Shown: piece after piece, positions 18,658 to 50,826 of the stretch | How the letters are laid out: each line of letters begins with the position of its first letter | Position numbering within the stretch: position 1 is the first letter of the stretch | Assembly (NCBI GenBank): GCA_048886685.1 | Contig: JBHLKM010000004.1 | Location: 114,486 to 178,485, forward strand | From: Candidatus Hodarchaeota archaeon | GTDB lineage: Archaea; Asgardarchaeota; Lokiarchaeia; Sigyniarchaeales; SOKP01 | Length of the DNA: 64,000 nt | Reading direction: 5' to 3' | The notes under the pieces: generated by a model | Databases searched by the model: none | What the model was told of the DNA's origin: nothing | The model's input: the letters and a program-made list of their open reading frames with translations, nothing else | Program-made: the position numbers and the translations under genes

Positions 18658-20124
18658 TTAAATATATGTATGAATTAAATCTATAAGGTTTTTAGAAAAA
18701 TCTGGTAAATTCTTCTCAATCTTTTCGATTTGGAGAGATTTTTCAATAAATAATAGCAAGTATAGATTATACTTTTCAACCTGGATTTTTTTAAATATTA
18801 CTTTTTTCGATTCATCTGCTATTCCTGAAGATACTAAAAAATCTTGTTGTAAAATCTTAAATTCTTTAAACGTTTTATATAATTCTTGGAAATGAGGGGC
18901 AGAAATTTCAAATACTCTTTCAGATATTTCATCTTTAGAATAATTAGATAAAATAATTCCATTTTCATTTAATAATAATATTGCATCTGATTGAGTTTTC
19001 TTCGCAAACTTTTTTAATTGATTTCTAAATAATTCTCGATTAGGACTAAGTTGTGAAAGCCCAAATGAATATGCTGTTATTAGGCTCCAATGATCAAAAA
19101 TACTAGTTTGAAAAATTTTAATTAAAAATCTATCAGAATTCTTCTCAATTTCATCTGCAATAATCTCTAAATTTTTGAATATTTCTTTTGATCCCTTTAA
19201 ATCTGGATCAAATTTATTTAAACAAACAACAATAGGAGGGAATTCCTCTAAGTCAATTAAAGAAACTATAATTTTCCTAAAAAGGTCTAAGGCCTCTTCT
19301 ATTCTCTCAACATCTTGAATATCAATAAAAAAGAAGATTAAATCCACATTATAGAGATAAATTTTACTTTGTTCAAGAAATCTCTCTCGATATTGTTTTT
19401 GACCAGCTAGATCCCAAAGTGAGATTACAGAATTCTGCTCTTCAAAAATATTTTCTTCAGATCTTTCAACACCTCTAGTAGGTAAAGCCTTTATGATTTC
19501 TGAATATCTCTTCTTTATTCCAAACAAAAAACTTGATTTTCCTGCCTTATCCAATCCAGTTAATAGTACCTTGATTTGCCTTCTCACAGAAAATGGATCT
19601 TTTAATTCCTTAGTGAATTCAAACAATTCATTTTTTATATCATCCATTATTCTTTTATGATCTTCAAGTTCTTTTTCTGCTTGTATCTGGCTAGCAGCCT
19701 TATCAATAATTATTCTTAAGTATTTCATATTTTCATAAAAGAAGACTCTATCATTTTCACTGATTAGTATGGTAATAGTAGCTGCTAAAGCTTGACCTCG
19801 GGCTTTTTCTTCAGGGATGAGAAAAAAGTATGTTAGACCATTTAATTTTAAGTCTGGAAACGGTAAAATACCAAAATAGTTAACACCCACGTCTGAACCT
19901 TGTGAATCTTGATAAACGGAATCACCCATAAGTAAACTGATGGTTTTCATTGCAATTAAAAGTCCAGCTTTTTCATCTAAATCAATAGGCCAAATAACTC
20001 TAGGAATGGGCCCCTTTTCATCAAATATGCTTAGAACTATTGCTTTTATTAAATCAGATTTGTTAGCATTTTCGGTTTTTTTATTGGTTTGTTTCATTTT
20101 CGATTTAGAGTCGTTATTGGTCAA
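18658..20124 (-). CDS. uDENN/longin-like domain + Arf/Rag-like small GTPase + roadblock-like domain
   Basis: AIVLSIFDEKGPIP..WP and EEKARGQ; G1 GLDKAGKSS, G3 WDLAGQ, G4 NKFD, G5 TSI; C-terminal AILLLNENGIILS. Confidence 0.85.
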   Translation of the reverse strand: MTNNDSKSKMKQTNKKTENANKSDLIKAIVLSIFDEKGPIPRVIWPIDLDEKAGLLIAMKTISLLMGDSVYQDSQGSDVGVNYFGILPFPDLKLNGLTYFFLIPEEKARGQALAATITILISENDRVFFYENMKYLRIIIDKAASQIQAEKELEDHKRIMDDIKNELFEFTKELKDPFSVRRQIKVLLTGLDKAGKSSFLFGIKKRYSEIIKALPTRGVERSEENIFEEQNSVISLWDLAGQKQYRERFLEQSKIYLYNVDLIFFFIDIQDVERIEEALDLFRKIIVSLIDLEEFPPIVVCLNKFDPDLKGSKEIFKNLEIIADEIEKNSDRFLIKIFQTSIFDHWSLITAYSFGLSQLSPNRELFRNQLKKFAKKTQSDAILLLNENGIILSNYSKDEISERVFEISAPHFQELYKTFKEFKILQQDFLVSSGIADESKKVIFKKIQVEKYNLYLLLFIEKSLQIEKIEKNLPDFSKNLIDLIHTYI

Positions 20125-43098: not shown

Positions 43099-43812
43099 TT
43101 GGCTATAGAAGATATAAATGGATGGGTTGATGGTATTACCGCAACCGGAGTAGTTCTTCTTGGTATCATATTCGGTTTATTCTTCATCTACAAATCACGA
43201 AAAACTGGTGCAAAACTACTTTTATATTTAGGCTTAGCAAATGTACTTGCAGGATTAATGTTTTTAGGAGTATTCATGGATTTCTTATTTGTTATATTAT
43301 TAAAAGAGAATATAAAAAACAATGGAACAGTTGCCATATTATCATATATCTGGTTTGCGCCTGTTATTATTACTGCAATGTATATTGGAACAGAACTTTT
43401 AATACCAAAAATAAAACTACATATCTTTATAATAGTTTTAATTATCTCCATATTCTTTGAGATAATAATCTTCATGGATCCTCTAAATTCTTTTAATTTT
43501 AATCCAGAACCACCAATACCACAAACTGAAAATTTAATTGATTATAATGTAAATTTATTTACCCTAGCAGGTATGGTGATGGGAGGTTTACTATTGGTTG
43601 TTATAATCTTTCTTGGGTTAGGATTTCTCTTAAAAGGTTTGAAATCTTCAGGAGTAATAAGAAAAAATTTCTTGTTCTTATCAGGAGGTTCTTTATGCTT
43701 CTGCATATTCGGATTACTAGAAGGATTGACAGTTCCTGGATTTCTTGTGATTGTAGTGAGGATAGGTTATCTTAGCTCATTTTGGCTGATGTATCTTGGA
43801 TTAAAAGATTAA
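43099..43812 (+). CDS. Stand-alone seven-TM membrane protein (sensor-like)
   Basis: Seven hydrophobic segments by eye, no cytoplasmic domain; GGTGG upstream of the TTG start. Confidence 0.75.
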   Translation: MAIEDINGWVDGITATGVVLLGIIFGLFFIYKSRKTGAKLLLYLGLANVLAGLMFLGVFMDFLFVILLKENIKNNGTVAILSYIWFAPVIITAMYIGTELLIPKIKLHIFIIVLIISIFFEIIIFMDPLNSFNFNPEPPIPQTENLIDYNVNLFTLAGMVMGGLLLVVIIFLGLGFLLKGLKSSGVIRKNFLFLSGGSLCFCIFGLLEGLTVPGFLVIVVRIGYLSSFWLMYLGLKD

Positions 43813-43926
43813 CGCAATTTTTTTTTCTTATCGATCATTATTTATAGTATTAAATTTTATTACTAGTTATATTAACATTATATCCAAATAATTACAATTC
43901 GGTATTATCAACGTTTTTTATCTATC

Positions 43927-44967
43927 ATGGAAAGGCAAATAATCAAAGCTCTTATATATAGTAATTTAGATGATGAAATCGGCCCTAATCCTAAAGCATA
44001 TTCTCCCCAAGATTTTTCTCAACTAAATCTATTGCATATTAGTGTTAAAACTTTTGCAATTCTTACAGGTGAGAGAGGAATGATACCTGAGTCTTTAGTT
44101 ATTTTACCATTTCCATCTCTGCAATTAAAAGCTTTGATTAAATATATTCAATGGAAAGATCCTGATATACGAGGAGGTATTGGTCAATCTAATATAGCTT
44201 TATTATTTCAAGAGATGGATGATGTAATTTTCTATAAGTACTTGAAAGAATTTTCAAATACTTTTGACGATATTGCTCAAAATATTGCTTTCTTAGAAAG
44301 ATCCAAGGCAAGTAAAGAGGAATTTGGTGATGAATTAAAAAATCTTGAAGCTTCAATAACAGAGCTTATAGAAAAATTAAAAAATCAAGAACTAACAGAA
44401 TATAGGATTGAGGCATTAGCAGAGGAAATAGATAGAAGTTTGATTGATTATCAATTCAAGATAATAGTTGTAGGAGATCCAACTGTTGGAAAAACAAGCT
44501 TAATCTTAAGGTATACTAATAATGCGTTCAGAAGATCATATGTATCAACCCTAGGTGTTCATGTTTCAAATAAGATATTTAAAACTGAAGACTCCACTAT
44601 TATCCAGCTTGTTTTATGGGATGTAGGGGGTCAAGAAAGGTTTAAACTTATGAGAAAACAGTTTTATCAAGGATCTGATGCTATTCTTTTGGTTTTTGAT
44701 TTAACTAACCCTGAAACTTTTAGCAATATCCCCGTCTGGTTTTTAGATATAAAGAAACAGATTAATAAGCTGGATGAAGATTTTACAGGTTATATCATTG
44801 GAAACAAAAAAGATTTAAAGGAGGATATAAAAATAACTGCTGATAATGCTCAAAAGCTAGCCGATCAAATGAATTTAAAATATCTTGAAACTTCTGCTTT
44901 ATCTGGGGAAAATGTAGATTATGCCTTCACAACACTCGCAAAATTCCTTTACGAGTCGCGAAAGTGA
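43927..44967 (+). CDS. uDENN/longin-like domain fused to a Rab-like small GTPase
   Basis: ALIYSNLDDEIGPNP, DPDIRGG; FKIIVVGDPTVGKTS, STLG, WDVGGQERF, GNKKD, ETSAL. Confidence 0.9.
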   Translation: MERQIIKALIYSNLDDEIGPNPKAYSPQDFSQLNLLHISVKTFAILTGERGMIPESLVILPFPSLQLKALIKYIQWKDPDIRGGIGQSNIALLFQEMDDVIFYKYLKEFSNTFDDIAQNIAFLERSKASKEEFGDELKNLEASITELIEKLKNQELTEYRIEALAEEIDRSLIDYQFKIIVVGDPTVGKTSLILRYTNNAFRRSYVSTLGVHVSNKIFKTEDSTIIQLVLWDVGGQERFKLMRKQFYQGSDAILLVFDLTNPETFSNIPVWFLDIKKQINKLDEDFTGYIIGNKKDLKEDIKITADNAQKLADQMNLKYLETSALSGENVDYAFTTLAKFLYESRK

Positions 44968-45127
44968 TAAAGAATGAATTTTTCGTGAAAGGTTAGTTTC
45001 ACGACCAATCAAATTGATTTAGACTTATAATGATAAATATGATTCAATCTTTTATTATTTATATCCTATAAGATGAACTCATTTAATCATGAAAAAACTA
45101 TTTTATATATAACTGCACTCAATAATT

Positions 45128-46159
45128 ATGTCTGAAGAGATTATCAAGGCAATCATATATATTTCGCTTGACGAGTCCATAGGACCCAATCCTCTTTTAT
45201 GGATTCCACTTGATTTATCAGAAAGGATTAGAATGGGAGTAAGTATTAAGACTATTACTATGCTTACTACAGATCAAGGAATCGTTCCTAATTCATTAGT
45301 CATTATGCCGTTCCCTGCATTCAAATTAAAGGGAATTATCAAATATATTGAGAGAGAAGATAATTCTCGACGAGGGGGGATTGCTTTGTCATCAATTGCT
45401 CTATTGTTTAATGAGGCAGATGATCTTATTTTTTATAAGTACATGGATTATCTTGAGCCTGCGTTTTCTAAATATGCAGAAAATATCATTGAATTAGAAA
45501 ATGCAAATGTAAATATTGATGATATATTTGTTGAGATAAATAAACTTCGAAGTGAATTATCAGGTATTCTTAAAGATTTGTATAATAAAGAGAAAGCGAC
45601 TTTAGAGTTAGAAGCTTTTCCTGAGCAGAAAGAAATAGGGGAAGAGATATTAGAATTTGTTTTTAAAGTGGTGGTATGTGGTGATCAGGGTGTTGGTAAA
45701 ACAAGTACAATATTGCGGTTTACTGATAATGCTTTTATGCGTACGTACGTCCCAACACTAGGTGTAAACATTACAGAAAAGGTAATAAAAGTAAAGGATA
45801 AACCTGTTAATTTAATTCTTTGGGATATTGCAGGTCAAGCTAAATTTGAATTAATGAGGCGACACTTTTATCAAGGCGTTAATATAGTTATTTTAATATT
45901 TGATCTTACAAACCCTAAATCATTGGAGAATGTATCTAAATGGTACAATGATATAAGAAAATATCAAAGGGAATTTATTGGTTTCATTTTGGGAAATAAA
46001 GAAGATTTAGTTGATGAGAGAAAAATCCTTTTTGAGGAAGCTTTAAAGATAGCTGAAACTCTAAACCTTAAATATTTTGAGACATCTGCAAAAACTGGTA
46101 AGAATATTGAAGAGAGTTTTTATAAGATAGCAGAAACTTTAGTTAAATCAAATGAATAA
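45128..46159 (+). CDS. uDENN/longin-like domain fused to a Rab-like small GTPase (tandem paralogue)
   Basis: AIIYISLDESIGPNP, DNSRRGG; FKVVVCGDQGVGKTS, PTLG, WDIAGQ, GNKED, ETSAKTG. Confidence 0.9.
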   Translation: MSEEIIKAIIYISLDESIGPNPLLWIPLDLSERIRMGVSIKTITMLTTDQGIVPNSLVIMPFPAFKLKGIIKYIEREDNSRRGGIALSSIALLFNEADDLIFYKYMDYLEPAFSKYAENIIELENANVNIDDIFVEINKLRSELSGILKDLYNKEKATLELEAFPEQKEIGEEILEFVFKVVVCGDQGVGKTSTILRFTDNAFMRTYVPTLGVNITEKVIKVKDKPVNLILWDIAGQAKFELMRRHFYQGVNIVILIFDLTNPKSLENVSKWYNDIRKYQREFIGFILGNKEDLVDERKILFEEALKIAETLNLKYFETSAKTGKNIEESFYKIAETLVKSNE

Positions 46160-49329: not shown

Positions 49330-50229
49330 ATGAAACCTTTAATATTAATAGTTGAAGATGACCCAAATATTTTAAAATACCTTAAAATAACATTAGAATT
49401 TAATGAGTGCCAAATTATTACAGCAGAAAATGGAAAAGAAGGATTAAAAGTTCTTTCGGAGTTAAAAAACACCCCTGATCTTATTATAAGTGATATAATG
49501 ATGCCAGAAATTAATGGATATGACTTTTTTAATACAGTTTCTAATAATCCTGCTTATTATCACGTACCGTTCATCTTTTTATCTGCTCTTGATTCTCCTG
49601 AAGATGTCCGACTAGGAAAAATGCTTGGAATTGATGATTATCTCACCAAACCCATTAATGAGGAGGACCTACTGGCAATAGTTGCTGGTAAAATTAAACG
49701 TAGTAAAACAAGCAGTTTGATTAATAAAAAAATTACGGAAATTTTTGGTTCATATGAAATTGAAAAAGAAAATATTCTTGATGAGCATAAAGATTTAATA
49801 ATATTAATAGAAGTAGAATGGGATGACGTTGTAGGTCCAAAAATTGTGAATAGCTTCCCGAAAGATATCAAATTAGACTTTTCACTCAAAAAGATTGGTG
49901 AAGAGCTCTATGATGGAGTTGTAGCAATGTATGGTCAGGATAGCATATTAGATGCTGATGGTTTTTTAGTACCTAAAAAGAATATTAATATTATGGCATA
50001 TGTGTTTTTTGATTCTTATCCTGATAGTTCTTATAGAGGGGGAAGAAAACAATATATGGTTTCTCTTATTGCTACAAAGATTACATATTTCCAATCATTA
50101 AAATTAAAGCAACTATTTATAGAACAATCTTCATTATATAAAAATCAAGATAAATGGGATATTGAAGAATTTTGGAATAAGGCTTCGGATATCCTTACAA
50201 AATCATCATTAATTACCGGTTCTAATTGA
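49330..50229 (+). CDS. Response regulator receiver fused to a C-terminal uDENN/longin-like domain
   Basis: Start at 49330 after GGAG: MKPLILIVEDD...SDIMMPEING...LSA...TKP. Then IEVEWDDVVGPKIVNSFP...DSSYRGGRKQYMVSLI. Confidence 0.88.
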   Translation: MKPLILIVEDDPNILKYLKITLEFNECQIITAENGKEGLKVLSELKNTPDLIISDIMMPEINGYDFFNTVSNNPAYYHVPFIFLSALDSPEDVRLGKMLGIDDYLTKPINEEDLLAIVAGKIKRSKTSSLINKKITEIFGSYEIEKENILDEHKDLIILIEVEWDDVVGPKIVNSFPKDIKLDFSLKKIGEELYDGVVAMYGQDSILDADGFLVPKKNINIMAYVFFDSYPDSSYRGGRKQYMVSLIATKITYFQSLKLKQLFIEQSSLYKNQDKWDIEEFWNKASDILTKSSLITGSN

Positions 50230-50271: not shown

Positions 50272-50826
50272 ATGGTAAATGCTGAAAATGAAGAAAAACC
50301 AATAAAGCTTGTAATTATGGGCATGGAAAATGCTGGAAAAACCACGATATTGGATGTGCTTATGGGCAAAATTAATGAAGCACCTAATAGACCACCAAGT
50401 ATGAATCCAACCAAGGGTATAGAAAGGAGTACTTTTTTGTTTTTTGAGAAAGAGACTAAAATTTGGGATTTTGGGGGGCAAGAGTTATATCGTAATGAAT
50501 ATTTACTAAATCCCGAAAATTATTTTTATACAATCTCATTCTTTTATTACGTGGTGGATATTCAAGATTACTATCGTCTTGCTCCCTCAGTGATGTACTT
50601 CAAAGGCGTTTTTAATCTTATTAAAAGATACAGTCCTGATGCAAAAATTATTTTTTTATTTCACAAAATGGACCCCGATTATATTTCAGATGAGAGAAAT
50701 CTAAAGGGAAAATTCCTAGAACAAGTTGAACCAGATTTAAAGTCAGCAAACACACCATATATAATGTTTGATACAACAGTTTTTGATATCCATAGTATTA
50801 AAACTGCTTTTGCTCAAGATTCATAG
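50272..50826 (+). CDS. Single-domain Arf/Rag-like small GTPase
   Basis: G1 GMENAGKTT, G2 PTKG, G3 WDFGGQ, G4 HKMD; 42 bp after the response regulator. Confidence 0.9.
   Translation: MVNAENEEKPIKLVIMGMENAGKTTILDVLMGKINEAPNRPPSMNPTKGIERSTFLFFEKETKIWDFGGQELYRNEYLLNPENYFYTISFFYYVVDIQDYYRLAPSVMYFKGVFNLIKRYSPDAKIIFLFHKMDPDYISDERNLKGKFLEQVEPDLKSANTPYIMFDTTVFDIHSIKTAFAQDS

Follow-up and report, generated by a model that had tools for sequence, protein, structure and literature searches.

A conserved tandem pair of longin-Rab-like GTPase fusions in Lokiarchaeia that may carry their own GTPase-activating domain

The window analysed here is a stretch of 64,000 nucleotides (C4:114486-178485; contig JBHLKM010000004.1) from the 47-contig, 4.4-Mb genome (G000) of a Candidatus Hodarchaeota archaeon of the class Lokiarchaeia, with a G+C content of ~30%; public relatives of its proteins are labelled Promethearchaeota or Lokiarchaeota. 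It contains a gene for a predicted seven-transmembrane (7TM) protein, followed by two genes for paralogous GTPases, A and B, each of which joins a predicted longin domain to a Rab-like G domain in a single chain. Three open reading frames (ORFs) were found on the forward strand at exactly the coordinates given by a first-pass annotation of the sequence: the 7TM gene at 43099-43812 (237 aa), gene A at 43927-44967 (346 aa) and gene B at 45128-46159 (343 aa). The spacers are 114 bp between the 7TM gene and A and 160 bp between A and B. All features of these genes given below lie on the forward strand.

The two GTPases are 44% identical over their full length (E 2e-108), and B has the same architecture as A according to Pfam and the BLAST alignment between them. 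Full-length A was modelled with AlphaFold2 (AF2) at a mean predicted local distance difference test (pLDDT) score of 86.5 and a predicted template modelling score (pTM) of 0.76. In both proteins Pfam places a Ras-family G domain from residue ~175 to the end (A, 44449-44964, E 1.9e-46; B, ~45656-46156, E 2.8e-48), and in A the P-loop, DxxGQ and NKKD motifs are encoded at 44473-44496, 44620-44634 and 44803-44814, respectively. Across the family G1 GxxxVGKT, the switch-I threonine, G3 DxxGQ, G4 NKxD and G5 SA[LK] are invariant or nearly so. The best solved relatives of the G domain are Rab1, Ypt1, Rab8 and Sec4 (E ~1e-33 to 1e-32), and the top 60 matches among PDB sequences are all Rab, Ypt or Sec4 (E 2.5e-33 to 4e-29); the RabF motifs, judged by eye, fit only in part (LGVHV, LVFDLT). 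The C-termini (...FLYESRK in A, ...LVKSNE in B) have no cysteine for geranylgeranylation, and because this residue is missing we regard A and B as Rab-like GTPases, not as true Rabs. Thus, the earlier description of two paralogues with complete G1-G5 motifs and no C-terminal cysteine is borne out by the Pfam matches, the conserved motifs and the C-termini themselves. Ahead of the G domain of A (44311-44448), AF2 predicts a long helix (residues ~130-164) and a low-confidence hinge (163-167), and this segment carries a conserved EAFPE-type motif.

The N-terminal domain of A and B (~128 aa) matched no family in Pfam or NCBIfam. The AF2 model of this domain of A (residues 1-128, 43927-44310; pLDDT 88) consists of strands 6-15 and 19-26, helix 32-47, strands 58-62, 67-77 and 85-95, and helices 96-104 and 106-125, that is, a bb-a-bbb-a-a order, and the predicted structure is a longin fold with a five-stranded sheet and no N-terminal helix; the corresponding domain of B lies at 45128-45511. 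When the model was compared with solved structures by Foldseek, the longin domain 8yqg came first (E 7e-7, TM-scores 0.70/0.78), followed by chains of GATOR1, the SEA complex, C9orf72-SMCR8 and FLCN-FNIP2, with E values from 7e-7 to 2e-4 over the list. The ranking by VIA-align was similar: 8yqg reached Z 19.8, Lst4 13.3, the FLCN complex 12.1, the SEA complex 11.7, GATOR1 11.6 and C9orf72-SMCR8 11.5 (12.1 to 10.6 over all chains of the FLCN-FNIP2, SEA, GATOR1 and C9orf72-SMCR8 structures), and TRAPP, VAMP7, Mon1-Ccz1 and DENND1 gave 10.2 to 8.9. A longin sequence profile searched against the PDB sequences also retrieved 8yqg (E 9e-4), the sole solved structure found by this route as well. On the evidence of the model, the N-terminal domain belongs to the FLCN/NPRL2/SMCR8/Lst4 subgroup of longins. 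The first-pass annotation had called it uDENN/longin-like; the longin half of that name stands on AF2, Foldseek and VIA-align, whereas the DENN half does not, as the GAP-type (GTPase-activating protein) longins score Z 11-13 and DENND1 only 8.9. An identity as the uDENN part of a DENN-type guanine nucleotide exchange factor (GEF) was discarded for the same reason and because no DENN domain follows the longin domain in A or B according to Pfam; the long helix and the G domain stand there instead.

Two motifs of the N-terminal domain that had been picked out at first pass, D..IGPNP and R-G-G, proved genuine: none of the residues G19, P20, R82 and G83 varies among 61 close family members. In the model G19-P20 (43981-43986 in A, 45182-45187 in B) open strand 2 (residues 19-26), and R82-G83 (44170-44175 in A, 45371-45376 in B) lie in the loop between strands 4 and 5. 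The GP motif is invariant also in A1, A2 and A3, and the arginine of the RG loop is invariant in the A clade described below. In the wider longin subfamily, represented by 119 clusters, GP is kept in 105 and the arginine in 99; two members of this subfamily reach the Pfam Folliculin family, one of them (P0198) with 24.5 bits against a cut-off of 23.3. A GP motif in the loop before strand 2 or at its start, beside an arginine finger, has been described as specific to the GAP longins SMCR8, C9orf72, FLCN and NPRL2 and as absent from FNIP2, NPRL3 and the TRAPP, adaptin and DENND longins (PMC12290439). The same study found the GP and arginine arrangement in Asgard "FLCN/SMCR8-type" longins and called their GTPase partners an open question (PMC12290439).

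To see how widely the fusion occurs, the N-terminal domain was used as a query, which retrieved over 255 proteins (clustered at 90%); nearly all are 341-351 aa long and carry Ras, Roc or Arf Pfam domains, and those relatives that have a name are labelled "Rab family GTPase". The full-length longin-Rab fusion is present in 56 of the 60 sampled genomes of the class. The four genomes without it make up family f2, which includes a single-contig genome of 4.4 Mb (G054). When this genome was searched with the longin profile, only frames of 473-497 aa and one frame of 297 aa were found, and no longin-Rab fusion; the 473-497-aa frames match the size of a longin-Rag-like protein encoded elsewhere in the window (18658-20124). 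Among 150 genomes of the phylum, in which the window's own family f1 is the only family of its class besides f2, full-length matches occurred in f1 only, and elsewhere the G domain matched alone. The longin-Rab fusion therefore looks specific to this class or, strictly, was not found elsewhere with this query.

The pair itself has a history of its own. In a maximum-likelihood tree of 38 copies, A and B sequences formed two clades, each of which spans genera g1 (the genus of the window) and g4, with supports of 90/89 and 88/88, and copies from other families fell into an unresolved basal group. By this tree, A and B are separate orthologous groups older than the split between g1 and g4. The two genes stand in tandem or near-tandem in most g1 and g4 genomes and in families f4 and f5; the gap between them is 45-450 bp in many genomes, and in g4 1-3 kb of membrane-protein genes lie between them. 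These intervening genes were considered as conserved partners of the pair and set aside, since they are membrane-protein ORFs unrelated to the window genes compared. Taken together, the fold, the motifs and the clades uphold the central claim of the first-pass annotation, that one polypeptide holds both a regulator-type longin domain and a Rab-like GTPase, and that this occurs twice, and they add that the pair is old and conserved.

The P-loops of the two clades also differ: A has GDPxVGKT, with a nearly invariant proline at the position equivalent to Ras G12, and B has GDQGVGKT (~45680-45703). This difference may bear on how an arginine finger enters the pocket.

Longin domains of the same subfamily occur in other combinations. 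The longin profile was run on 1.84 billion representatives and found 229 clusters, 150 of which were listed. Those listed are mostly of the ~345-aa form; of the 460-525-aa forms, one that was checked combines the longin domain with a Rag-like G domain and another with a TrmB domain, and in proteins of ~290 aa the longin domain is at the C-terminus (E 4e-16 to 7e-12), with no Pfam match in the N-terminal part of the three that were checked. In a single representative cluster (P0132, 525 aa) the longin domain and a Ras-family G domain are followed by a TIR_2 domain at the C-terminus (E 7e-19); no close copy with the TIR domain turned up when genome and metagenome contigs were scanned. Two further cases lie in the window. 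At 49330-50229 on the forward strand a receiver domain is fused to a C-terminal longin domain, in whose alignment to the longin profile the GP and RGG motifs of both coincide (hhalign E 8e-4), and a bare Gtr1/RagA-like GTPase follows at 50272-50826 on the same strand. On the reverse strand, 18658-20124 encodes a 488-aa protein of the longin-GTPase-roadblock type, which, besides a longin domain of the subfamily seen in A and B (hidden Markov model E 1e-22), has a G domain of the Gtr1/RagA type and an unassigned C-terminal stretch; it gives a weak Pfam Folliculin match at the arginine-loop region. Between B and the receiver-longin gene lie genes for a nitroreductase, an Hsp20 protein and a multi-transmembrane histidine kinase. 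On the other side, the genes 5' of the 7TM gene encode TBP, a YkgJ-like protein, a macro domain protein, a 970-aa enzyme resembling phosphoenolpyruvate (PEP) synthase and UPF0147.

The 7TM gene starts with TTG, with GGTGG just 5' of the start codon. Kyte-Doolittle windows gave seven hydrophobic segments in its product (~12-32, 39-68, 76-98, 105-126, 152-178, 190-210 and 212-235), and neither Pfam nor NCBIfam contained a match even at E 10, so that no homology to a receptor family was found; its description as a stand-alone 7TM protein without an output domain is consistent with both results. Loops 1, 3 and 5 are rich in lysine and arginine, the long loop 4 and the N-terminus are acidic, and by the positive-inside rule this indicates an N-out/C-in topology. 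The protein belongs to a family with six copies in the genome of the window and up to 11 copies per genome in the class. Of the 587 members of its Atlas cluster almost all come from Promethearchaeota, and the family seems to be restricted to Loki-type archaea; among named Atlas clusters HisKA_7TM came nearest, with a score of 0.86, which is a lead only. A likeness of its TM1-TM2 region to the nearby histidine kinase, suggested at first pass, is at chance level (31% identity over 52 residues, E 0.03 in pairwise BLAST). This resemblance was dropped, as the 7TM-family profile scored the kinase at -8.6 bits and its best stretch at 8.2 bits, against a composition bias of 19 bits.

Some 7TM paralogues in related genomes end in a cytoplasmic TIR_2 domain (E 2e-11, 2e-7), and others in a RING, C1 or Prok-RING-like zinc finger (all sub-threshold); these cytoplasmic C-terminal domains agree with the C-in topology. 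A search for longer fused forms (at least 416 aa) yielded only one relative, of 591 aa, with no domains in it. Because paralogues carry TIR_2 or RING-like C-terminal domains, the 7TM module seems to be a membrane anchor or sensor whose output can be exchanged. In several g4 genomes 7TM::TIR_2 genes stand directly after B and the nitroreductase gene (L044:11282-12508, L045:14435-15661 and L046:6077-7294), and in several g1 genomes 7TM::RING-like genes lie 1-5 kb 3' of the pair (L036:13569-14612, L036:14774-15841 and L037:12634-13680).

The spacers of the locus carry signals of their own. In archaea oligo-T runs terminate transcription and TATA boxes serve as promoter elements. Directly 3' of the stop codon of the 7TM gene there is a run of nine T residues (43818-43826), followed by the TATA-like element ATTATTTATAG (43838-43848), and both are kept in register in five of six genomes of the same genus. 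They are likely the terminator of the 7TM gene and the own promoter of gene A, so that the 7TM gene probably ends its transcript before A. The spacer between A and B (44984-45064) contains the hairpin CGTGAAA-N6-TTTCACG (44984-45003) after the A stop codon and, at 45052-45064, TTATTATTTATAT, which is similar to ATTATTTATAG and lies ~70 nt 5' of the B start codon. The T-run and TATA-like element before A together with the hairpin and TTATTATTTATAT before B suggest three transcription units, one each for the 7TM gene, A and B.

Within g1 the block TBP-YkgJ-Macro-PEP synthase-UPF0147-7TM-A-B-nitroreductase is collinear, and a 7TM orthologue (68-76% identity) adjoins A in 14 of 16 genomes of the genus, that of the window included. 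In one g1 genome (G052; L042, 10378-10752) UPF0147 and A are separated by 374 bp with no 7TM gene there; A and B are intact, and the genome has only one, distant member of the 7TM family. In g4 the block reads PEP synthase-UPF0147-A...B-nitroreductase without the 7TM gene. The g4 orthologue of the 7TM gene (57-65% identity) is found instead beside a gene for a ~340-aa metallo-beta-lactamase (MBL)-fold hydrolase (L061-L066, L069 and L070), a homologue of C7:25720-26745 in the genome of the window, and no GTPase or longin gene was detected within 7 kb of it; the same held for the copies checked in g6 and g3. The 7TM gene has thus changed place between g1 and g4. Moreover, no 7TM-family match at E<=0.001 was obtained in 10 of the 60 genomes, and seven of these ten (families f1, f3, f4 and f5) still have one to seven copies of the fusion.

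The account that we favour, with moderate confidence, is that the Lokiarchaeia-specific longin-Rab-like GTPases A and B form a tandem pair of ancient origin, that they would dimerise through longin domains acting as a built-in GAP, and that the 7TM protein is not a required partner. In each chain an FLCN/NPRL2/SMCR8-type longin domain is followed by a long, hinged helix and by an intact Rab-like G domain for GTP hydrolysis, which cannot be prenylated. The longin domains would dimerise, A with B where both exist, and the platform so formed would cup a G domain. The arginine of the RG loop would be a GAP finger that stimulates hydrolysis by the tethered G domain, either in cis or in trans across the dimer, and the switch would in this way carry its own off-regulator. 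The 7TM gene would be a member of a multi-copy family of membrane proteins that came by chance to lie upstream of the pair in one genus. Heterodimerisation through the longin domains, which the first-pass annotation had also raised, seems plausible, because the nearest solved relative is a dimer and the eukaryotic GAP longins act as heterodimers: both SMCR8-C9orf72 (PMC8213707) and FLCN-FNIP2 (PMC9473554) are longin heterodimers in which the two longins build the pocket and one of them contributes the arginine finger.

Several points weigh against this account. Several genera have a single copy of the fusion, so that a heterodimer is not obligatory. Three B orthologues of the same genus have lysine in place of the arginine, and ~20% of the longin-Rab representative clusters lack it, so that not every copy can be a finger donor. 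The eukaryotic FLCN, NPRL2 and SMCR8 were not among the 150 clusters listed of the 229 found by the longin profile. The architecture and the motifs are observed, whereas dimerisation and GAP action are read across by analogy, and R82 is the putative equivalent of FLCN R164, NPRL2 R78 or SMCR8 R147. In addition, members of the 7TM family recur 0.1-5 kb from the pair in two genera, g1 and g4, so that some link to this family is conceivable.

The main rival explanation accepts the fusion and gives its longin domain another task. The domain would be no GAP but a scaffold for dimerisation or localisation, comparable to the C-terminal roadblocks of the Rag GTPases, or a GEF platform such as those of Mon1-Ccz1, TRAPP and the DENN proteins. 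Most eukaryotic longin platforms are indeed GEFs or scaffolds (PMC10933270), Mon1-Ccz1, TRAPP and DENND1 also match the model (Z 8.9-10.2), and the arginine is replaced in some family members. However, the GAP-type longins fit the model better (Z 11-13), and the GP motif, reported as specific to GAP longins (PMC12290439), never varies among the close relatives and persists in 105 of the 119 clusters. We consider a scaffold or GEF role the less probable reading.

According to a further proposal, made at first pass, the 7TM protein would act as a sensor and pass its signal to a heterodimer of A and B in a GPCR-like (G protein-coupled receptor) manner, the three genes being one functional module; a lack of conserved linkage had been named beforehand as counting against it. 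The common strand, the spacers of 114 and 160 bp, the adjacency in 14 of 16 genomes of the genus, the TIR- and RING-like-tailed 7TM paralogues just 3' of B in g1 and g4 and the one longin-Rab-TIR fusion all speak for such a module. Yet the linkage is confined to one genus and lies there inside a long collinear housekeeping block, and across the class no conserved linkage of 7TM and GTPase genes was found outside that genus. The orthologue has other neighbours in g4, g6 and g3, none of them a GTPase or longin gene, G052 keeps A and B without the 7TM gene, seven genomes have the fusion and no 7TM-family match, a conserved oligo-T run and TATA-like element separate the 7TM gene from A, and searches of Pfam and NCBIfam gave no homology to receptor families. 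The coupling is not supported by the comparative evidence, and we consider a three-gene module improbable. The proximity of 7TM paralogues to the pair, seen in two related genera only, could stem from one ancestral arrangement. We likewise see little chance that in these two genera the 7TM family, stand-alone or with TIR or RING-like tails, and the longin-Rab pair form a membrane-to-switch signalling module; if they did, an archaeon would possess a small-GTPase system coupled to a receptor, and the longin-Rab-TIR fusion would be the Rosetta stone of that link. Had it held, the link to the 7TM protein would have been a greater surprise than the rest of the first-pass proposal, but the comparison of genomes does not bear it out.

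A variable signalling or defence island, in which 7TM modules with TIR or RING-like outputs accompany longin-Rab switches and the 7TM protein of the window is a tail-less member, would explain the 7TM::TIR genes directly after B and the nitroreductase gene in g4, the 7TM::RING-like genes 1-5 kb 3' in g1 and the union of a longin-Rab unit with TIR_2 in P0132 (E 7e-19), but it deserves little credence, as the P0132 TIR domain used as a query found no TIR in the genome of the window, the association occurs in two related genera only, where a single ancestral arrangement may explain it, and the longin-Rab-TIR fusion is a single cluster.

Returning to the pair as longin-Rab-like switches with a putative GAP of their own, the fusion of longin domains to GTPases in Asgard archaea is already known in print, and A and B add a further case. 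Five Asgard longins fused to Arf-like GTPases were reported by Klinger et al. (2016), according to the summary in PMC4917890; Liu et al. (bioRxiv 10.1101/2020.10.19.343400) described fusions of longin to Rag and of NPRL2-like longins to two-component domains; and Tran et al. (2024, PMC10933270) counted 26 GTPases with a roadblock or longin fusion among the 74 of MK-D1. Like the fusions designated "L-G" and "L-G-R", A and B combine an N-terminal longin domain and a small GTPase in one chain, in Loki-type archaea and without a prenylation cysteine. The accounts that we read give Arf-like and Rag-like partners for longin fusions; in A and B the partner is Rab-like and the genes form a conserved A/B pair, and we found neither feature named in print.

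As paired small GTPases on a platform of the roadblock/longin superfamily, A and B also resemble the Rag heterodimers (RagA/C, Gtr1/2) and MglA-MglB. The Rags, however, dimerise via C-terminal roadblocks and have Rag-type G domains, and MglB is a separate protein. The closest solved structure to the A longin, 8yqg, is the longin domain of a Lokiarchaeota Roadblock-Longin protein (root-mean-square deviation 2.2 A over 145 residues), for which we found no published description. It was deposited as a dimer and is only 16-17% identical to the A longin, and it is fused to a roadblock domain, not to a GTPase.

Further known systems to compare are the eukaryotic longin GAP complexes FLCN-FNIP2, GATOR1 NPRL2-NPRL3 and C9orf72-SMCR8. 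A and B share with them the longin subtype (Z 10.6-13.3), the GP at strand 2 and the Arg-Gly loop, and they too have two paralogous longins at hand to pair; C9orf72-SMCR8, moreover, also acts weakly on Rab8a and Rab11a (PMC8213707). Unlike these complexes, A and B have no DENN domain, carry the substrate-type G domain in cis and are known here by sequence and model, and the arginine is present in both A and B, whereas in the eukaryotic complexes it is found in one subunit only. The longin GAPs folliculin, GATOR1 and C9orf72-SMCR8 control eukaryotic nutrient signalling, and current work traces them back to Asgard longins bearing the GP and arginine motifs. A conserved longin-Rab fusion directly names a GTPase partner for the GAP-type longins of Asgard archaea, and A and B offer a compact, soluble two-protein system in which to test whether the arginine-finger mechanism predates eukaryotes.

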